From Pseudidiomarina andamanensis (lineage in GTDB: Bacteria; Pseudomonadota; Gammaproteobacteria; Enterobacterales; Alteromonadaceae), in contig NZ_CP032551.1 in NCBI RefSeq assembly GCF_009734345.1, positions 660,001-692,000 on the forward strand: 32,000 nucleotides of DNA, given 5' to 3'. Below the pieces are notes generated by a model. It searched no databases. It was not told where the DNA came from and saw only the letters and a program-made list of their open reading frames with translations. Made by a program: the position numbers and the translations under genes. Each line of letters opens with the position of its first letter. The stretch's first letter is position 1. Below, in pieces: positions 23,592-31,910 of this stretch.

Positions 23592-23927
23592 TTATGATTT
23601 CGCTTGAGTTAACTTAACCGCAGTACCATAGGCTAATAATTCTGCTGCACCATGCGCAAGCATTGAAGTACTGAAACGCACATCAATCACTGCGTCGGCG
23701 CCTAGTGTTCGAGCTTCATCGACCATTCTATCTAAAGCCTGTTCGCGGCTCTCGCCAAGCAGTTTGGTGTAATCATGAATTTCACCACCAACAATATTTC
23801 TAAAAGCAGCCAAAATATCTCGACCAAGATGACGCGCTCGAATGGTATTCCCGCGTACTAAACCCAGATGCTCGGTAATTTTAAACCCAGCAATATGGTC
23901 ACTACTCACAACTCGCACGTGTTTCAT
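23592..23927 (-). CDS. ybjQ: YbjQ/UPF0145 family protein (putative heavy-metal-binding domain)
   Basis: 111 aa, colinear with E. coli YbjQ (FRNIVGGEIHDYTKLLGESREQALDRMVDEARTLGADAVIDVRF...GTAVKL vs [44 protein letters not shown]...GTAVK). Its ATG overlaps the anti-sigma stop (ATGA at 23924-23927). Confidence 0.87.
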   Translation of the reverse strand: MKHVRVVSSDHIAGFKITEHLGLVRGNTIRARHLGRDILAAFRNIVGGEIHDYTKLLGESREQALDRMVDEARTLGADAVIDVRFSTSMLAHGAAELLAYGTAVKLTQAKS

Positions 23928-24367
23928 AATTGTACCTTCTTGTACCGATCATTCTTAGCGGCAATCCATCGTTGGCGTGCCACTGCTCCAAACAAGAGTA
24001 AAAACCCAAGCCCTAAACTGCTAGTGACGAGTTTGAGTGCCATCGGTATCGATTCATCCGACCAATAGCTAAAAATTCCATATATCGCGAGCAAAGACAA
24101 CGTGGTTAATACAAGAACCCATCCCGCGATGAACGCCCATCGACTCGGCTTATCCTTGTCGAATTTCGCCAGCAGTTGCCCATCATCAAATTTCGGTATC
24201 GCATTGCGCAGTTGCTCTCGCATACCTTGTAACTCTTTTAATTCGCTCTGACACCCCGCACACTCGGCTAGGTGATGATGCAATTGTTGCTGCTGCTGTT
24301 GCGTCAATTCATTATCCATGAAACCAGAAATTAGCGTTGCTGCCTGTTCGCATGTTAAACCACTCAT
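23924..24367 (-). CDS. Membrane-anchored zinc-type (ZAS, HxxxCxxC) anti-sigma factor
   Basis: The N-terminal segment CEQAATLISGFMDNEL...HHHLAECAGC contains the H-x3-C-x2-C motif. Two hydrophobic helices (WAFIAGWVLVLTTLSLLAIYGIF, LVTSSLGLGFLLLFGAVA) are joined by a loop of only about 13 aa. ATGA overlap with the upstream ECF sigma gene. Confidence 0.82.
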   Translation of the reverse strand: MSGLTCEQAATLISGFMDNELTQQQQQQLHHHLAECAGCQSELKELQGMREQLRNAIPKFDDGQLLAKFDKDKPSRWAFIAGWVLVLTTLSLLAIYGIFSYWSDESIPMALKLVTSSLGLGFLLLFGAVARQRWIAAKNDRYKKVQL

Positions 24368-24870
24368 TTTTCACCTCGTTGCAACGTCTCTAACACCTGT
24401 TTTAAAGCTAGCCGGGCGCGATGTAACCGCGACATAACGGTACCTTGTTCAAGCTGCATAATTTGGGTTATATCGGCATAGCTACAGCCATTAATTTCAC
24501 GTAAGACAATAATTTCGCGCTGTTCAATCGGTAACTTCTGAAGCGCCATTCTTACCATTTGTTGGGTCTGCCAAGTTTCGAACTGGTGTTCAGGCTCAAT
24601 CATGGTTGGCGCTTGCTGCTCATAATCTTCGCCCCCTAAGCCTTGTTCTTTGCGCTGACGCCGAATGACGTCAATCGCCGCATTATGAACGGCGCGCAAA
24701 AGCCAAGCTTTCAACTGGTGTTTATCAGTTGGCATATCGGTAACCGTCAACGCTACTTCTAACACCTGTTGCACACTATCGGCAGCACGCTGCTCGCATT
24801 GCTGGATAGCCATGGCATGTGTCATAGCATCGGCTATCAATGGTTTAAGCAGCGCCAAGCGTTCAGACAT
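24364..24870 (-). CDS. ECF-type RNA polymerase sigma factor (sigma-70 family group 4)
   Basis: 168 aa with region 2 (WLLRAVHNAAIDVIRRQRKE) and a region 4 HTH (REIIVLREINGCSYADITQIMQLEQGTVMSRLHRARLALKQ). AGGA lies 7 nt before the ATG. Confidence 0.9.
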   Translation of the reverse strand: MSERLALLKPLIADAMTHAMAIQQCEQRAADSVQQVLEVALTVTDMPTDKHQLKAWLLRAVHNAAIDVIRRQRKEQGLGGEDYEQQAPTMIEPEHQFETWQTQQMVRMALQKLPIEQREIIVLREINGCSYADITQIMQLEQGTVMSRLHRARLALKQVLETLQRGEK

Positions 24871-24904
24871 ATGAGTTCCTAATTAAATAGTCGCTTACCT
24901 ATAA

Positions 24905-24930
24905 AACGAATGAAGCAGTGTGTTTATTCC
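24905..24930 (-). promoter_or_regulatory. Candidate ECF-type autoregulatory promoter (GGAAT-N17-CGTT)
   Basis: The minus strand reads GGGAATAAACACACTGCTTCATTCGTTTTAT. GGAAT is the complement of 24926-24930 and CGTT the complement of 24905-24908, with a 17-nt spacer. It sits about 35 nt upstream of the sigma ATG. It only loosely fits the GGAAC/CGT ECF pattern. Confidence 0.3.
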
Positions 24931-24959
24931 CTCAAATACAAAATAAATTTTGGTTTTAA

Positions 24960-26792
24960 TTAATCTGGAAGAAAACCGCCCGATTGACGCGCCCATAACT
25001 GCGCATACAAACCGCCATGAGCCAGTAACTCTTCGTGGCTCCCTTGCTCTACAATTCTTCCCTCATCCATCACTACTAATCGATCCATAGCAGCAATGGT
25101 CGATAAACGGTGCGCAATCGCGATAACGGTTTTACCTTCCATTAAGCGATACAGATTTTCTTGTATCGCCGCTTCCACTTCGGAATCGAGTGCCGATGTC
25201 GCCTCATCTAGAATTAAAATTGGCGCATCTTTTAACATGACCCGAGCAATCGCAATACGCTGGCGCTGACCGCCGGATAACTTCACGCCACGCTCACCAA
25301 CGTGCGCGTCATAACCACGTCGCCCCTGAGAATCTTCGAGGTCCGCAATAAATAAATCCGCTTCCGCTCGATGCGCCGCTTGCTCAATCATATCTTGTGT
25401 TGCATCAGGGCGTCCGTAGGCAATATTCCCTCGTACCGATCGATGTAACAACGAGGTATCCTGCGTCACCATGCCAATATGCTGGCGCAAGCTTTCTTGA
25501 GTGACCGATGAAATATCTTGGTCATCAATGGTAATACGCCCATTTTTAACCTCATAAAAACGCAGCAATAAGTTAACCAACGTTGATTTGCCGGCACCTG
25601 AACGGCCTACTAAGCCAATTTTTTCACCGGCTTTAATGGCGAGATCGAGGTCACGTAGTACAGGCTTGTCTTCACTGTAATAAAAATTAAGATGGTCGAA
25701 ATGAATATCGCCGTGGTGAACCGTGAGTGGTTTTGCATTTGGTTTATCTTGAATATCTTGCGGTACCGAAACGGTTTTGATGCCATCCTGAACCGTACCG
25801 ATATTTTCAAACAACGATGAAATTTCCCACATAATCCACTGGCTCATCCCCCACAAACGCAACACCAAGCTCAACGCCACGGCAATTGCGCCCACGGTAA
25901 TTAAGCTTTCTACCCAAAGATAAATCGCCAGGAATCCAACACTAAACAGCAATAGGGAATTTAACAGGTATAGACAAGTGTAGAGTTTTGTAACAAGGCG
26001 CATTTGCCGATGCACCGTGCCAAGAAAATCGCTCATGCCCTCTTTCGCGAATGTGAGTTCGCGTTGGGCATGAGAAAACAATTTAACGGTTTGAATGTTG
26101 GTGTAGCTATCGACAATGCGCCCGGTCATAATGGAACGTGCATCCGCTTGATCGGCTGCGACTTTACCCAACCGAGGCACAAAGTAACGTAGTAACACCA
26201 AATAGAGACCTAACCAAGCTATCAGCGGTAATGCTAAACGCCAGTCAGCTGCACCAATGATCACCACAGTACCGATAAAATAAACGGTCACATAATTCAG
26301 CACGTCAAATAACTTGATGACGCACTCGCGCACCGCCAGAGCTGTTTGCATCACCTTCGTTGCAATACGACCAGCAAACTCATCCTGGTAGAACGTCACC
26401 GATTGATTCAGCAGATATTTGTGCACCAACCAGCGAATTCGCATCGGATAATTACCTAACAAGCTTTGATAGGTAATGAGAGAGTGAAAAATAACTAAAA
26501 GTGGCAAACCAATAAGAACAACCGCAGCCATTCCGGTAAGCCCCCAGAACTGCTCCTGCACAAACGTTTCTCGATTTTGCTCAGCTAACCAATCAACAAT
26601 GTTGCCGATAAAGCTGAATAGCCATACCTCGGTTAATGCAATCAGCATCATTAAGAACCCAGCCACAAATATGAACGGCCACGCGCCCTTGCTGTAATAC
26701 AAACAGAAGGCTACCAAGGTTTTTGGCGGTTGTTCGGGGTTACCATCTGGAAATGGCTTTAGACGTTGTTCAAACCAACGAAACATAATCAA
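24960..26792 (-). CDS. ABC exporter, fused permease/ATPase (MsbA/multidrug-like half transporter)
   Basis: 610 aa with six N-terminal TM helices, then an NBD carrying Walker A GRSGAGKST, signature LSGGQRQR and Walker B ILILDEATSALD. The start could instead be the ATG two codons downstream (MFRWFE...). Confidence 0.92.
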   Translation of the reverse strand: MIMFRWFEQRLKPFPDGNPEQPPKTLVAFCLYYSKGAWPFIFVAGFLMMLIALTEVWLFSFIGNIVDWLAEQNRETFVQEQFWGLTGMAAVVLIGLPLLVIFHSLITYQSLLGNYPMRIRWLVHKYLLNQSVTFYQDEFAGRIATKVMQTALAVRECVIKLFDVLNYVTVYFIGTVVIIGAADWRLALPLIAWLGLYLVLLRYFVPRLGKVAADQADARSIMTGRIVDSYTNIQTVKLFSHAQRELTFAKEGMSDFLGTVHRQMRLVTKLYTCLYLLNSLLLFSVGFLAIYLWVESLITVGAIAVALSLVLRLWGMSQWIMWEISSLFENIGTVQDGIKTVSVPQDIQDKPNAKPLTVHHGDIHFDHLNFYYSEDKPVLRDLDLAIKAGEKIGLVGRSGAGKSTLVNLLLRFYEVKNGRITIDDQDISSVTQESLRQHIGMVTQDTSLLHRSVRGNIAYGRPDATQDMIEQAAHRAEADLFIADLEDSQGRRGYDAHVGERGVKLSGGQRQRIAIARVMLKDAPILILDEATSALDSEVEAAIQENLYRLMEGKTVIAIAHRLSTIAAMDRLVVMDEGRIVEQGSHEELLAHGGLYAQLWARQSGGFLPD

Positions 26793-26912
26793 TCCTTAAT
26801 TGCATGATGCGAGTAACAAGCTAGACTTTGGTCGTATGTCAGTTGTTAGTGTGCATGAAGTACCATAACGCAGTTATTGTTGTACCAATAATAAACTAAA
26901 AAGGGTAACGCC

Positions 26913-28598
26913 ATGAATGCAATTCTGCTAATGCTACTCGGTTTAGGTGCGATGTTTTTGGGCTACGTTTTTTATTCGAAATTTGTAGCTGAAAAAATCT
27001 TTAAACTTGATCCGAATTTCCGAACGCCTGCTCACGAATTTGAAGACGGTGTCGATTTCGTTCCAACCAATAAATATGTCCTTTGGGGCCACCACTTTAC
27101 GTCTGTTGCTGGCGCAGCGCCAATTATCGGTCCTGCCATTGCCGTTATTTGGGGTTGGGTTCCCGCCTTCTTATGGGTGGTATTTGGTACTATTTTCTTT
27201 GCTGGGGTACACGATGCTGGTGCTATTTGGGCATCAAACCGAAATAAAGCACGGTCAATAGGCGCACTTACTGGCGATGTCGTCGGCAAGCGGTCGCAAA
27301 GCCTATTTATGATCGTGATTTTCCTTGTACTACTGATGGTGAACGCGGTATTTGCAACTGCTATTTCGGGATTGCTGATTAACTTCCCAAGTTCAGTTGT
27401 TCCGGTTTGGGGCGCTATTTTCGTCGCACTCATTATCGGTCAGGTCATATTCCGTAAATGGATGAACCTAGGAACAGTGTCCATTCTTGGGGTGATTGCA
27501 CTGTATGCTTTAATTTATGCGGGGCCTTCGCTCCCTATCGCGTTACCTGAGACCGTATTCGGTGTCTCAGACAATGCACAATGGATTATTGTCCTATTTT
27601 TATACGCTGCTATCGCATCGTTATTGCCAGTTTGGATGTTGTTACAACCGCGCGATTATATTAACGGTTTGCAATTATTCATTGGCTTAATTTTGGTTTA
27701 CGGCGCTGTGTTGATCAGCGGCCCTGAATTAGTTGCGCCAGCGTTTAATACCAACACCCCAGAGGGTACACCAAGTCTGGTGCCGTTGCTGTTTGTGACA
27801 ATTGCCTGCGGCGCTATTTCAGGCTTCCACGGTTTAGTGGCGTCTGGAACTACCTCGAAGCAATTAGATAAAGAAACCGACGCGCGTTTCGTCGGTTACT
27901 TTGGTGCTATTGGTGAAGGCTCGCTGTCATTAGCCACCATTATTGCGGCGACCGCTGGTTTCGCTACGCTTGCAGATTGGCAGGCGGTGTATCACAGCTT
28001 TGGTCAAGGCGGCGTGTCAGCCTTCGTTCAAGGTGGTGCCAATATCTTAAATAACGGTATTGGTCTTGATGTTGAGCTATCACAAACGTTACTGACCGTC
28101 ATGGCGGTGTTGTTTGCAGGTACAACTATGGATACCGGCTTACGTCTACAGCGTTATATTTTCCAAGAATGGGGAAATATCTACAACATCAAATGGATGG
28201 AAAAAGCCGCTCCAGCAACACTGCTTGCCGTTGCATCATGTCTGTTACTCGCGTTTGGTGCGGGTGGCGCAGACGGTGCTGGTGGCCTACTTATTTGGCC
28301 GTTGTTCGGCACCACAAACCAATTGCTAGCAGGTTTAACGCTCTTAGTAATTACCACCATGCTAGTTAAACTGGGCCGTCCAATGTACGTCACCTTGATA
28401 CCGTTACTATTCTTGTTGGTGATGACAATCTATGCCCTACTGATTCAGCTCATGGGCTTCTACCAGAAGTCTGACTGGTTCTTGTTTGGTTTAGATTTAG
28501 TGGTACTCATTGCAGCAATTTGGATTGCATTAGAAGCTGCCGGTACTCTAACGCGCCTTCGTCGCGAAATGCGACAATCAGCGCCATCAGCTGACTAA
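26913..28598 (+). CDS. Carbon starvation CstA-family transporter (short form, 561 aa)
   Basis: Polytopic membrane protein with CstA-type N-terminal motifs (VDFVPTNKYVLWGHHFTSVAGAAPIIGPAIAVIWGWVPAFLWV, FAGVHD). It is shorter than E. coli CstA, which is about 700 aa. Confidence 0.9.
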   Translation: MNAILLMLLGLGAMFLGYVFYSKFVAEKIFKLDPNFRTPAHEFEDGVDFVPTNKYVLWGHHFTSVAGAAPIIGPAIAVIWGWVPAFLWVVFGTIFFAGVHDAGAIWASNRNKARSIGALTGDVVGKRSQSLFMIVIFLVLLMVNAVFATAISGLLINFPSSVVPVWGAIFVALIIGQVIFRKWMNLGTVSILGVIALYALIYAGPSLPIALPETVFGVSDNAQWIIVLFLYAAIASLLPVWMLLQPRDYINGLQLFIGLILVYGAVLISGPELVAPAFNTNTPEGTPSLVPLLFVTIACGAISGFHGLVASGTTSKQLDKETDARFVGYFGAIGEGSLSLATIIAATAGFATLADWQAVYHSFGQGGVSAFVQGGANILNNGIGLDVELSQTLLTVMAVLFAGTTMDTGLRLQRYIFQEWGNIYNIKWMEKAAPATLLAVASCLLLAFGAGGADGAGGLLIWPLFGTTNQLLAGLTLLVITTMLVKLGRPMYVTLIPLLFLLVMTIYALLIQLMGFYQKSDWFLFGLDLVVLIAAIWIALEAAGTLTRLRREMRQSAPSAD

Positions 28599-28607
28599 GG
28601 TGGCAAG

Positions 28608-28880
28608 ATGAAAATACGAGCAATTGTTGAATGGTTAAAACAGGCAAACGACTACGCAACCAATGTGTATAACGCGCCATACCGCTCAGCTATTGCTCGT
28701 GCCAAGCGGGATGAAGATGATTTATTTATGCTATTAGTTTTCTCAGAGCTAATGGGCGTTCCGAATCCCGCTTCTTATTATACGCTTGAGTTGCAACCGC
28801 TATTGTTAGAGCGGTTTCACGAGTGGCATTTACGTATGGGGATGGAACACTCTCCGCTTGACGGTTTTCGTTGTTGTTAG
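28608..28880 (+). CDS. Small soluble protein ending in Cys-Cys-stop (possibly the RefSeq 'cory-CC-star' family, from memory)
   Basis: The ATG lies 9 nt after the cstA-like stop and is preceded by AGGTGG. 90 aa. Its only two cysteines are the last two residues (GFRCC*). No TM segment. Confidence 0.7.
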   Translation: MKIRAIVEWLKQANDYATNVYNAPYRSAIARAKRDEDDLFMLLVFSELMGVPNPASYYTLELQPLLLERFHEWHLRMGMEHSPLDGFRCC

Positions 28881-28939
28881 GCAACGTCACTCGTCGCATC
28901 TCGATAGTCTGCTTTTTGTTCTAATCTCACGGTGGTCTG

Positions 28940-29941
28940 ATGTTCTCACTCAATACCAAGAAAATCATTTTTGTCGGCGGTAAAGGTGGCGTTGGTAAAA
29001 CGACAATTTCCTCTGCCATCGCCCTGCAACAGGCTGAACTTGGGCGCCAGGTACTACTTATCTCGACCGACCCTGCGCACAGCCTGGCGGATGCGTTTGA
29101 TCACCCTATTGGTGATTCTAAAGTGAGAGTGGCTGCGGGCGTTGATGCACTTGAGATTGACCCAGATCGTGAAGTTGATGCGCATATTGAACGTGTCATG
29201 CGCACCATGAAACGCTTCAGTAAACCAGATATGTTTCCTGAAATTGAACGACAAATGCGTTTAACGCAACAGTCGCCCGGTGCCCAAGAGGCAGCATTAT
29301 TAGAACGTATTGCTCGTATTATTGATGAAGAACCGGAACATTACGACGTAATCATTTTTGATACCGCGCCAACCGGTCATACCCTGCGACTATTAAGTCT
29401 CCCTGAAGCCATGGCCGCTTGGACACAGGGCTTATTGAAACAAAGCCAGAAAGCCAAACAACTCGAAGGCGTGTTGGAACATCTGTCGCCAAAAGCTGGT
29501 AAAGACATTACTAACCCGATGGCCGATCCGACCCAGCATGAAACGGCGACAATGGATGATCGTACGGCAGAAATTACCGAGACGCTATTACGCCGCCAGC
29601 GTTTATTTCATCGTATTCGGCATATATTAACTGACCCAAAGCAAACTGGATTAGTGTTTGTATTAACACCAGAGAAACTACCGATTTTAGAAACAACACG
29701 TGCTGTTGCGGCATTAAAATCAGAACACCTACCAATTGCGGGTTTGGTAGTTAACCGTAATTTACCTGATTTAATTGATAGTGACTTCTTTGCGCAACGC
29801 CGTCAGCAAGAATCGATTTATCGAGAAGAGATTGAAAACACATTTGCCGATTTACCACGTGCCTATTTGCCATTGTTTCCAACCGATTTGCACGGTTTAG
29901 CAGCATTGCAGAAGGTTTGTGCAGAATTACCAAGTGATTAA
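28940..29941 (+). CDS. ArsA/Get3-family P-loop ATPase, single-domain
   Basis: Deviant Walker A GGKGGVGKTT, STDPAHSL, and the ArsA signature DTAPTGHTLRLL. 333 aa, i.e. one ArsA half. A single Cys sits near the C-terminus, and there is no CxxC. Confidence 0.9.
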   Translation: MFSLNTKKIIFVGGKGGVGKTTISSAIALQQAELGRQVLLISTDPAHSLADAFDHPIGDSKVRVAAGVDALEIDPDREVDAHIERVMRTMKRFSKPDMFPEIERQMRLTQQSPGAQEAALLERIARIIDEEPEHYDVIIFDTAPTGHTLRLLSLPEAMAAWTQGLLKQSQKAKQLEGVLEHLSPKAGKDITNPMADPTQHETATMDDRTAEITETLLRRQRLFHRIRHILTDPKQTGLVFVLTPEKLPILETTRAVAALKSEHLPIAGLVVNRNLPDLIDSDFFAQRRQQESIYREEIENTFADLPRAYLPLFPTDLHGLAALQKVCAELPSD

Positions 29942-30528
29942 ATGAGCAAATAGCTGCCGTAGACGACGATGCCGATAGCAAGAAGCCACCACCCTGCTCG
30001 TCGACTTTGCTGCTGCCACCAGTCTAAAACGCGTTCGCCAAACCAATAAACTAGTAACGCGAGGCCGTAATAGCGAATGCCTCGCGCTATCGTCGCAGCT
30101 AACATGAATAATAAAAATGGATATTCTGCGCTACCCGCTGCGAGCATACCCACTTGGAATGGTACTGGGGTAATGCCAACCAGCAATAACGTAGCGAAGC
30201 CATGCTCTTCAAATCGCACTGTGAAGGCCTCAAAGGCATTCTGATAACCCAGCGCAGTCAGCACCCAATCACCGAAATCATCCAGAAACCAAAAGCCAAT
30301 GCTATAACCGATGCTAGCCCCTACCAAACAACCTAGTAACGTTGCTGTGGCAATTGCCCAGAGACGATCTTGCTGATGCAGCAATAACGGTATCAGAATC
30401 AGTTCAAGTGGAATGGGAATGATCAAACTTTCGAGCAAAGAGGCAATAAAAATTAGCGGAAGAATGGCTTTAGAATCAGCAAAACGCGCCAACCAACGGT
30501 CGGCGCGTTTGTTATTCGTAGCTTGCAT
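29938..30528 (-). CDS. YqaA/DedA-type (SNARE-associated domain) membrane protein
   Basis: 196 aa with about 5 hydrophobic helices and a DedA-like pattern (LLESLIIPIPLELILIPLLL, GRFIPGxR-like ARGIRYYG). It starts 5 nt downstream of the M28 peptidase stop. Confidence 0.75.
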   Translation of the reverse strand: MQATNNKRADRWLARFADSKAILPLIFIASLLESLIIPIPLELILIPLLLHQQDRLWAIATATLLGCLVGASIGYSIGFWFLDDFGDWVLTALGYQNAFEAFTVRFEEHGFATLLLVGITPVPFQVGMLAAGSAEYPFLLFMLAATIARGIRYYGLALLVYWFGERVLDWWQQQSRRAGWWLLAIGIVVYGSYLLI

Positions 30529-30533
30529 GAATG

Positions 30534-31910
30534 TTATTCACCAAATGCGCCTGCAGCGCCTGGGTAAACAACCGGGCTTTCAAAATCTTTGTCGCTGACA
30601 CTGGCAACACCAAAGAAATAATTATCAATCACGATGTTTTCGAGGGTGTATTCGGTCACGTTACCGACGTAGCGGCTAAATTCCCAGTTTGGTGCATCCG
30701 TGTGGCGCCAATAGATGCGGTACCCTTTCACATGCTCTTTTTCAGCTTCTGAAGGCGCAGCCCAACTTAACGTTGTGCTTGGACTTACTGCTCCAGCAAT
30801 TTTAACTTCCGCTGGTGGGCTCGGCGCCCATGCCATGCTAGCTAAAGATACCGCATTCAAAGCGGTTAACTTAGCTGCGTAATCAAAATCAACACCATCA
30901 ATGGTATCACCATAGGCAATGCCATTTTCAACCCGTAAATCTTGGTGCTGACGGTTGTAGTTTTCGTTGGTTTCCATAATGCGTACACCTGGGAAACCAA
31001 GGTCGTTAAACGGGCGATGATGCCCACCACGAGCGAAACGATCTAAACGATAAATGACCATCGTATCGAGATTAGGAATATAGCGATCAGCCATCCAATC
31101 GATATAGCGCGCCACATTACGACTCGGGGAATCAACCTCTCCTCCGGTGAAACGACGGCGACGAATATCTTCGGGTGTTTCATCTTGACGTGTGCCTTCC
31201 GCAAAAATACGCGCGGTGGTGTTATTAATTACACCATTGATACCTTCGATATTACCAATCATATCGTTGTTCAAAACGGCCTTAATACGCCAGCCATCTT
31301 TCTGGGCTTGTTCGGCCATGATCTTACCGCCAAAAAGCCCTTGCTCTTCACCAGCTAACGCCGCATAAACAATGCTTCCCGCAAATTTATATTTGCTCAA
31401 TACGCGTGCCGCCTCAAGCGTGCCCGCAACACCTGACGCATTATCATTTGCTCCCGGCGCATCTGAGGTATAATCCATGACATCACTTACGCGCGAATCA
31501 ATATCACCTGACATAATCACATAACGCGATGGGTCGACCGTCCCTTTCTGAACAGCAATGACGCTCACAACCTCAACCGGATCAGGAATACGCGGCTCGC
31601 CAGAAATAACCCGTGATTGATAGTAAACCTCGAGACAACCACCACACTCCGCTGAAATTTTATCAAACTCAGCTTTAATCCAACGACGAGCGGCGCCAAT
31701 ACCACGCGTATCTGACTCGGTTTCTGATAACGTATGGCGCGTACCAAAACTAACCAGCTTTTCAATATCGGTTTGAATGCGGTCGGCTGAGACAGCTTGT
31801 TGGATGGCATGCAGTTGCGGCTGATCGGTGTATTCGACATCAGCATATGCGCTGATAGCAAAAACACCAGCAGCGACAGACGACAATAGCGCCCACGGTT
31901 TAAGTTTCAT
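30534..31910 (-). CDS. Secreted M28-family aminopeptidase with C-terminal fibronectin-III-like domain
   Basis: Signal peptide MKLKPWALLSSVAAGVFAISAYA. M28 metal-ligand contexts (GANDNASGVAG, AGEEQGLFGG, NNDMIG). C-terminal FN3-like segment (PPAEVKI...LSWAAPSEAEKEHVKGYRIYWR). Confidence 0.9.
   Translation of the reverse strand: MKLKPWALLSSVAAGVFAISAYADVEYTDQPQLHAIQQAVSADRIQTDIEKLVSFGTRHTLSETESDTRGIGAARRWIKAEFDKISAECGGCLEVYYQSRVISGEPRIPDPVEVVSVIAVQKGTVDPSRYVIMSGDIDSRVSDVMDYTSDAPGANDNASGVAGTLEAARVLSKYKFAGSIVYAALAGEEQGLFGGKIMAEQAQKDGWRIKAVLNNDMIGNIEGINGVINNTTARIFAEGTRQDETPEDIRRRRFTGGEVDSPSRNVARYIDWMADRYIPNLDTMVIYRLDRFARGGHHRPFNDLGFPGVRIMETNENYNRQHQDLRVENGIAYGDTIDGVDFDYAAKLTALNAVSLASMAWAPSPPAEVKIAGAVSPSTTLSWAAPSEAEKEHVKGYRIYWRHTDAPNWEFSRYVGNVTEYTLENIVIDNYFFGVASVSDKDFESPVVYPGAAGAFGE

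Follow-up and report, generated by a model that had tools for sequence, protein, structure and literature searches.

An operon of a short CstA-family carrier, a Cys-Cys-ending small protein and a Get3/ArsA-fold ATPase in Pseudidiomarina andamanensis, and how its parts may work together

What does a single-domain ATPase of the Get3/ArsA fold do in an operon with a secondary carrier of the CstA family and a protein of 90 amino acids whose only cysteines are its last two residues? The question is raised by three co-oriented genes of Pseudidiomarina andamanensis (NCBI RefSeq assembly GCF_009734345.1, contig NZ_CP032551.1) that lie within positions 660,001 to 692,000 of the forward strand, a stretch of 32,000 nucleotides referred to here as the window and used for all coordinates. 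The set resembles the ArsD-ArsA-ArsB system in combining a secondary carrier, an ArsA-family ATPase and a small protein with vicinal cysteines, and an earlier reading of this DNA, made from the sequence alone (the sequence-only reading), proposed a transport or insertion module built on that logic. The answer favored here, tentatively and at a little less than an even chance, is that the operon encodes an ATPase-operated adaptor subunit of a short CstA carrier.

The locus is an ordinary orthologue of an operon that has been described but is experimentally unstudied, and is not a discovery in its own right. Castillo and Saier (2010; Int J Microbiol, PMC2963123) described operons of CstA, a protein of about 90 amino acids named CstX, and a single-domain ArsA homologue of about 330 amino acids in both bacteria and archaea, on the basis of SEED contexts and a comparison of trees, those for CstA, CstX, and ArsA being congruent. 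Their ArsA Cluster 18 includes Idiomarina loihiensis, I. baltica, Psychrobacter, Alcanivorax, and Pseudomonas stutzeri, and the single-domain homologues are reported there to be without the three ArsA cysteines. They proposed that the ArsA homologue energizes CstA and that CstX is a linker, the latter idea coming from the congruence of the trees. Because this proposal already existed, the central hypothesis of the sequence-only reading is a rediscovery, and the novelty it saw in a carrier/ATPase module does not stand, the idea having been on record since 2010. No experimental study of the triad was found in the literature, nor was any paper found with the names cory-CC-star, DUF7990, PF25952, or NF041419; “CstX” in this sense was met only in PMC2963123.

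Layout and conservation of the three genes

The features of the operon, all on the forward strand, are as follows.

26913..28598, forward strand: CstA-family carrier gene, 561 amino acids; open reading frame (ORF) and Pfam profile
28597..28603, forward strand: Shine-Dalgarno sequence AAGGTGG, overlapping the carrier stop codon and 5 nucleotides (nt) before the ATG of the small ORF; read in the sequence
28608..28880, forward strand: cory-CC-star (CstX, DUF7990) gene, 90 amino acids; NF041419, PF25952
28818..28829, forward strand: codons of H71-E-W-H74, the HxxH of the FHxWHxRMG motif of the small protein
28872..28877, forward strand: codons of the terminal Cys89-Cys90 (TGT TGT), then TAG
28940..29941, forward strand: single-domain Get3/ArsA-fold ATPase gene, 333 amino acids; TIGR00345, PF02374

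What the sequence-only reading had described at this level is all present in the DNA. The carrier and small ORFs share one reading frame and are separated by the TAA stop of the carrier and a 9-nt spacer, GGTGGCAAG, with the AGGTGG at 28598-28603 overlapping that stop, and the spacer between the small ORF and the ATPase ORF is 59 nt. The small protein ends ...DGFRCC, with Cys89 and Cys90 its only cysteines, and the ATPase has the expected signatures together with a single cysteine.

The co-occurrence of these genes reaches well beyond this genome, as a neighborhood census of the kind proposed in the sequence-only reading has established. A genome scan with the small protein, using one genome per species and taking in relatives of at least 67% identity, gave at least 573 stretches encoding relatives, of which the neighborhoods of the best 80 were examined. 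In these 80 loci, wherever the contig is long enough, the small gene is directly preceded by a CstA-like gene and directly followed by an ArsA-like gene; the sole exception is L039, where a glucose/sorbosone dehydrogenase gene precedes the small gene in place of CstA. The 80 species-level genomes show the triad in the same order in Gamma- and Betaproteobacteria and in metagenome-assembled genomes of Longimicrobiales (Gemmatimonadota), Vicinamibacterales, and Acidobacteriota. RefSeq annotation gives the same succession of “carbon starvation protein A,” “cory-CC-star protein,” and “ArsA family ATPase” in Pseudochrobactrum and Paracoccus (Alphaproteobacteria) and in Cytobacillus (Bacillota). When all neighboring ORFs were clustered, the triad was the only unit common to otherwise differing neighborhoods.

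The junctions within the triad are short. The gap between the carrier and small genes has a median of 11 nt and 28 of 76 loci show an overlap, and this tight or overlapping junction indicates translational coupling; the gap between the small gene and the ATPase gene has a median of 24 nt, with overlap in 19 of 77 loci. Of the three products, the small protein shows the highest conservation (identity to the Longimicrobiales orthologues is 74-80% for the small protein, 62-63% for CstA, and 44-48% for the ATPase). The arrangement of the three genes is far beyond chance, and its conservation supports the view that they form a functional unit. Although no experiment links the three genes, it is hardly credible that they are neighbors by descent only and act independently, given the same order, the tight or overlapping junctions, and the conservation across phyla inside unrelated neighborhoods.

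The carrier belongs to the CstA family (TC 2.A.114 in the Transporter Classification), scoring 459 bits with the Pfam CstA profile (PF02554), for which the gathering score is 27, and carrying the family motifs. It has 32% identity to Escherichia coli CstA and keeps HHF..AGA.P, LPVW.LL.PRDY, IACGA.SGFH, and WPLFG..NQ.LAG, while about 30 N-terminal residues, a loop of about 60 residues, and about 100 C-terminal residues of the E. coli protein are missing. With the CstA equivalog NF011590 (pyruvate/H+ symporter) it scores 235 bits where the cut-off is 1188; it is therefore not an orthologue of the characterized pyruvate carrier, and from the sequence the substrate of E. coli CstA (pyruvate) cannot be assumed for the short carrier. 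A search by sequence gave no solved structure for the carrier or for the small protein.

The small protein and the ATPase

The sequence-only reading had named a small-protein family called “cory-CC-star,” and the profile search that it proposed places the 90-amino acid protein there: with NF041419 it scores 134.6 bits (cut-off 80) and the match covers 79 of 80 profile positions, the protein ends in two cysteines (CC), and its gene has CstA- and ArsA-family neighbors. There are at least 1487 homologues; among those listed, Pfam PF25952 (DUF7990) is precomputed on all, the CC terminus is present in 120 of 120, and the closest is from Pseudidiomarina maritima (98% identity). The terminal CC is invariant in one alignment of the family (A1) and nearly invariant in a more diverse one (A2). 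Among distant representatives, taken at 50% identity, it is found in 84 of 137, most of the others being fragments, frameshifts, or chimeras, and at 30-40% identity it is retained in endings such as ...KCC, ...LPCC, ...GVCC, and ...WLRCC. The 50%-identity representatives that cover the region include 69 with H71, H74, and CC and 7 with CC only; both His and both Cys are missing from about 10 seemingly intact proteins that end ...YHF or ...YDLDA.

The subclade without HxxH and CC includes P0225, P0227, P0229, P0235, P0243, and a protein encoded at 94-387 of L086, the last of which is followed by an ArsA-like gene; the sister group of this subclade ends ...QYDFCC and is without the His pair. A metagenomic fragment (P0157) reads as an apparent in-frame CstA::CC-star fusion, the underlying DNA not being on record, and other long “fusions” (P0124, P0255, and P0209) look like frameshifts or chimeras. 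Many public records name the 90-amino acid protein “DNA helicase,” a name that no profile search supports.

AlphaFold2, given an alignment of 57 sequences, predicts helices at 2-49, 54-58, and 60-76 and coil at 77-90. The mean predicted local distance difference test (pLDDT) of 87.9 with a predicted template modeling score (pTM) of 0.51 fits a small protein that needs partners; a Foldseek search of the PDB with this model gave no match. The highest Kyte-Doolittle value for any 19-residue window is 1.12, and that window includes Glu47. Since there is no hydrophobic segment of transmembrane grade, the protein is not of the single-transmembrane segment type and is unlikely to be a tail-anchored client. 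PMC2963123 differs in calling CstX a single-transmembrane segment protein, and its passages searched here do not discuss the CC terminus. The model and the sequence together suggest a cytoplasmic helical adaptor with a flexible end that carries two His and two Cys (His2/Cys2).

The profile scores of the ATPase support its assignment to the ArsA/Get3 family rather than to ParA/MinD, as the sequence-only reading had proposed: it scores 274.6 bits with TIGR00345 (TRC40/GET3/ArsA; cut-off 135) and 259.5 bits with PF02374. None of the findings that the earlier reading had named as counting against itself (a set of genes confined to this genome, a terminal CC that varies among homologues, or an ATPase of a clade such as ParA/MinD) was made. 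The motifs GGKGGVGKTT, STDPAHSL, and DTAPTGHTLRLL are read in the protein. Because GGKGGVGKT, STDPAHS, DTAPTGHT.RLL, and VNR (deviant Walker A, switch I, switch II, and VNR) are kept in an alignment of 136 orthologues, the ATPase should be an active ATP-sandwich dimer. It is not an ArsA in the strict sense, as it scores 148 bits with the ArsA equivalog TIGR04291 (cut-off 650) and has one domain and no Cys triad; scores with the BagA, BagB, and NosAFP profiles are far below the cut-offs. Its single cysteine (C327) is not conserved, cysteine is absent altogether from 43 of 76 gammaproteobacterial-type orthologues, and the alignment of 136 orthologues contains no conserved Cys or other candidate substrate site.

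The best solved relatives of the ATPase are the archaeal Get3 homologues 3zq6 (E 7e-54) and 3ug6 (E 1e-51), along with Chlamydomonas ArsA1 (5zme). The earlier observation that the protein has neither the metalloid cysteines of ArsA nor the CxxC of Get3 holds, and the CxxC (CEFC in 3zq6) aligns with SDFF, so that no zinc site of the Get3 type is found. Some functional Get3 homologues are also without CxxC according to a 2019 survey (PMC6593721), and its absence alone is therefore not decisive.

These relatives raise the alternative that the ATPase is a targeting or assembly chaperone, delivering a client, either the CC-tailed protein or the carrier, once to the membrane. Like Get3/TRC40, it would be a homodimer whose single ATPase domain carries an inserted helical subdomain, and Get3-like grooves have been reported in many single-domain bacterial homologues (PMC6593721). 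The sequence composition of the helical subdomain is about as hydrophobic as that of 3zq6 (0.41 vs 0.41 and 0.35 vs 0.38), although it has half the Met (7 vs 14). Delivery would also suit the finding, described below, that the small gene and the ATPase gene are the strictest pair, but not the pairs of CstA and CC-star genes that have no adjacent ATPase gene. In contrast to Get3/TRC40, the operon has SDFF in place of CxxC, no Get1/Get2-like receptor, and no tail-anchored client, the small protein being predicted to be soluble and helical with a hydrophobicity maximum well short of a transmembrane segment; the membrane partner here would be a transporter. A Get3-like delivery system, which the sequence-only reading had offered as its own alternative with the CC-tailed protein as client, is very unlikely on this evidence.

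The CC tail, its partners, and the possible mechanism

The CC ending is also found next to carriers of this family in proteins of another kind. In E. coli, YbdD ends ...GGARCC and YjiX ends ...GGMRCC, and they are encoded just after CstA and BtsT, respectively; yjiA, the gene for a COG0523 GTPase, comes after yjiX (btsT-yjiX-yjiA). A trio of long CstA, DUF466, and CobW-family GTPase is also found in Crenobacter and Sulfurospirillum. DUF466 proteins (PF04328) have two invariant His and the CC, and are predicted with low confidence (pLDDT 68) to have three helices and a disordered tail. Haft (10.1101/2022.07.06.499078) described the RCC-COOH ending of DUF466 and a Lys-Cys-Sec-COOH form (Sec, selenocysteine) in Campylobacter. 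Hwang et al. (PMC5847655) found that in E. coli deletion of ybdD phenocopies deletion of cstA for uptake of pyruvate and 3-fluoropyruvate. YjiA has been reported to bind Co, Ni, and Zn and has been linked to carbon starvation (PMC10763504).

Homology between DUF7990 and DUF466 was considered and rejected: 57 members gave no relevant Pfam match at E<=10, and hhalign of A2 against A3 gave a probability of 6.8% with only the tail aligned. The likeness is one of plan, in that a carrier is followed by a small all-helical protein with R-C-C-COOH and two invariant His and then, after btsT, by a nucleoside triphosphatase (NTPase) of the SIMIBI class; the difference is that the E. coli carriers are long (686-716 amino acids) and the NTPase is a G3E GTPase, whereas here the carrier is short and the NTPase is a Get3/ArsA ATPase. 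From the sequences, a CstA-family carrier with a small CC-ending helical protein and a dimeric SIMIBI NTPase exists in two versions, each with its own small protein and its own NTPase, a parallel that was not found stated in the papers searched. By analogy, the DUF7990 protein is one that would work like YbdD, not a member of its family. Since the unrelated YbdD and YjiX, encoded beside CstA and BtsT, share the R-C-C-COOH ending, the CC tail is a theme of the CstA family and not of arsenic.

An arsenic system is thus not what the CC tail points to, and the operon is probably not one. The sequence-only reading had likened the small protein to ArsD, an analogy that has proved weak. ArsD is thioredoxin-like with Cys12, Cys13, and Cys18 near the N-terminus, whereas the small protein is predicted to be all-helical with Cys only at the end, and it has no ArsD match in Pfam or NCBIfam; moreover, the ATPase has no conserved Cys acceptor and the CC tail is kept where no ATPase gene is adjacent. 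Because the tail persists without an adjacent ATPase, it does not serve solely to feed an ArsA-like acceptor. The carrier is also unrelated to ArsB or Acr3, and the ATPase differs from ArsA in having one domain instead of two and in being without the Cys113/172/422 site.

A hand-off of thiols or metals is a broader version of the same idea. The CC/HxxH end would bind a thiophilic species (for example a metal, metalloid, selenium, or sulfur species) and shuttle it between carrier and NTPase; alternatively, it would be loaded by the NTPase with a metal that the carrier complex needs. Invariant vicinal Cys and two His in both small-protein families are consistent with this, as are the Cys-Sec-COOH form of DUF466 in Campylobacter and the metal binding reported for YjiA, which is the NTPase in the parallel trio; a metal is often bridged at the interface of SIMIBI dimers, and the missing CxxC of Get3 could be supplied in trans. 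However, no metal-related regulator or riboswitch was found near the operon, a conserved Cys or His acceptor is missing from the ATPase, the characterized substrates of CstA-family carriers are pyruvate and peptides, an E. coli yjiA mutant showed no chelator phenotype, and the subclade without CC still pairs with the ATPase. Hand-off is accordingly rated as distinctly unlikely. A wider proposal, equally doubtful, is that all CstA-family carriers are three-part systems of a carrier, a small protein ending in Cys-Cys or Cys-Sec-COOH, and a dimeric SIMIBI NTPase, existing in two non-homologous versions, in which the NTPase would load or operate a His2Cys2 metal or thiol-reactive site that has a direct part in transport, for example as a gate or by briefly holding the substrate at the cytoplasmic exit.

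The partners of the small protein vary among its more distant relatives. A full triad is still found at 46% identity (L090), and in L085 and Cytobacillus (L176) an extra small ORF stands between the CstA gene and the DUF7990 and ATPase genes. In L083 and L084, which have an archaeal-looking context, and in L087, the genes for CstA (556 or 560 amino acids) and DUF7990 overlap and there is no adjacent ATPase gene. The opposite arrangement is seen in a clade known mostly from soil metagenomes, with a small protein ending ...LPCC: an ArsA-like gene lies directly downstream in 76 of 76 loci with enough flank, often overlapping, while a co-oriented CstA gene is upstream in 0 of 80 loci, even with 6 kb of flank. 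One locus of this clade (L157) has a divergent CstA gene, and L089 has an O-methyltransferase gene upstream. At the level of neighborhoods, the soil clade and L039 contradict the statement of PMC2963123 that CstX is never found in the absence of cstA.

Of the gene pairs, that of the small protein and the ATPase is the strictest and the most tightly coupled. This suggests an ATPase that acts on the small protein, with the small protein in turn acting on the carrier or being part of it. Judged from these neighborhoods, the small protein would be the hub of the module.

The alternative with the longest history is energization of the carrier: the ATPase would dock on it via the small protein and convert a carrier driven by the proton-motive force into an ATP-driven pump, for uptake or efflux, in the manner in which ArsA energizes ArsB. 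This is the proposal of Castillo and Saier and was the main idea of the sequence-only reading. In its favor, ArsA is a member of the ATPase family, conservation of the operon is strict and the trees are reported to be congruent (PMC2963123), and a carrier without the N- and C-terminal segments and the cytoplasmic loop would fit a remodeled cytoplasmic face. A large clade with CC-star and ATPase genes but no adjacent carrier is difficult to reconcile with an engine for the carrier, as are the pairs of CstA and CC-star genes without an adjacent ATPase. In addition, the NTPase of the long-CstA trio is a COG0523 GTPase, from a family known for metal chaperones and not for transport engines, and the ATPase here has no conserved substrate-binding Cys or other candidate site. 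Energization is considered unlikely, though it ranks highest among the alternatives.

The reading preferred here, that of an ATPase-operated adaptor, assigns the following roles. The small protein would be a cytoplasmic, all-helical adaptor with a flexible tail ending in Cys-Cys beside HxxH. Made in a fixed ratio with both of its neighbors, it would bind the ATPase dimer and dock on the cytoplasmic face of the carrier, and the ATP-driven closing and opening of the dimer would load, position, or release the adaptor on the carrier, so that carrier activity is switched or assisted. The His2/Cys2 end of the adaptor would be its working part, as a metal-binding or thiol-reactive site. The system would not be an arsenite pump, and its substrate would more likely be a small organic acid or a peptide, as for other CstA carriers.

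Several points weigh against this preferred reading. We infer all of the physical contacts, the direction in which the ATPase acts, the chemistry of the tail, and the substrate. The case for the small protein as hub rests on gene neighborhoods, and a neighbor that is absent may be encoded elsewhere in the genome. The L086 subclade without CC and HxxH still adjoins an ArsA-like gene, so some partnerships with the ATPase can do without the CC tail. No NTPase gene adjoins cstA-ybdD in E. coli, the COG0523 trio was sampled in three lineages only, and the parallel between DUF7990 and DUF466 may be convergence or the coincidence of a short motif.

If nevertheless a three-part design of CstA carriers is real, it would be a coupling principle not described for any secondary carrier. 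The CstA family is central to the scavenging of pyruvate and peptides, and of its CC-tailed partners YbdD and YjiX, the former is required in E. coli for the uptake of pyruvate. Single-domain homologues of Get3/ArsA abound in bacteria, and hardly any of them has been characterized. The operon is compact and is found in at least about 570 species-level genomes, including those of culturable, genetically tractable Halomonas, Alcanivorax, Vibrio, and Pseudomonas relatives; for mutation there are three proteins, an invariant motif of two residues, and one ATPase. Solving it would show a role for a Get3-fold ATPase in bacteria and might explain the whole CstA family.

Upstream region and neighboring genes

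The remainder of the 32-kb window is ordinary chromosome by its Pfam matches, which are typical of seryl-tRNA synthetase, MgsA/RarA, FtsK, alanine dehydrogenase, a thioredoxin-reductase-like flavoprotein, and ClpA. No ars genes (arsR, arsC) were seen among the annotated ORFs of the window. An Rfam search around the operon at E<=1 gave no match to a riboswitch or RNA element, and a scan for promoters and terminators gave nothing convincing. One further feature lies upstream.

26821..26834, forward strand: upstream motif CTAGACTTTGGTCG in the 120-nt divergent intergenic region, conserved in Pseudidiomarina

Within this region, CTAGACTTTnGTC is invariant about 80-90 nt upstream of the carrier start codon in the window and in six other Pseudidiomarina loci (L003-L008), while the flanks drift. 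From the sequence, it may be a candidate operator or promoter element, serving either the operon or the ABC transporter gene that diverges from it.

The genes divergent from the operon (23924-26792, reverse strand) encode an ECF-type sigma factor, a putative anti-sigma factor, and an MsbA-like ABC exporter, and the ABC gene is syntenic only in Pseudidiomarina and one Idiomarina locus. On the other side, the ATPase gene meets a convergent gene for a DedA/VTT-domain membrane protein (29938-30528, reverse strand), whose 3' end shares 4 nt of coding sequence with that of the ATPase gene, leaving no room for a terminator; this neighbor is kept only within Pseudidiomarina.

The extra small ORFs between the CstA and CC-star genes are at 355-792 of L085, an actinobacterial-like contig, and at 5633-5920 of L176 (Cytobacillus spongiae). 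They encode 145 amino acids, with SGSGCCG, and 95 amino acids, respectively, and have weak mutual similarity (E 9e-5 over 48 amino acids). Neither has a match in Pfam, NCBIfam, or PDB, and the idea that the 145-amino acid SGSGCCG protein is ArsD-like was dropped for want of support from these sources.

Exonuclease-type genes recur near CstA operons and may be regulators. In Halomonadaceae (L041, L054, L056, L063, L065, L068, L078, and L082), genes for a protein of about 686 amino acids with a C-terminal 3'-5' exonuclease-like region and for a single-domain response regulator are divergent upstream of the triad; in Alcanivorax (L070 and L071), only the response regulator is found in this position. 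A 3'-5' exonuclease gene is near the Pseudochrobactrum triad (L177, 1-210), and DUF294 and RNase_T genes follow the CstA-DUF466-CobW trio of Sulfurospirillum (L174, 6670-9094).

Peptidase genes of differing families are also found beside the operon. An M28 peptidase gene adjoins it in the window (30534-31910, reverse strand) and in other Pseudidiomarina. In Idiomarina (for example, L029, 1229-3856), a putative zinc carboxypeptidase of about 875 amino acids, M14-like by eye, is encoded upstream in the same orientation, and there is an M24 gene downstream in Cytobacillus (L176, 7314-8567) and an M17 gene in the archaeal-looking contig (L083, 6227-7672). These neighbors give a weak hint of a peptide or amino acid-derived substrate, or they may reflect chance in peptidase-rich genomes.

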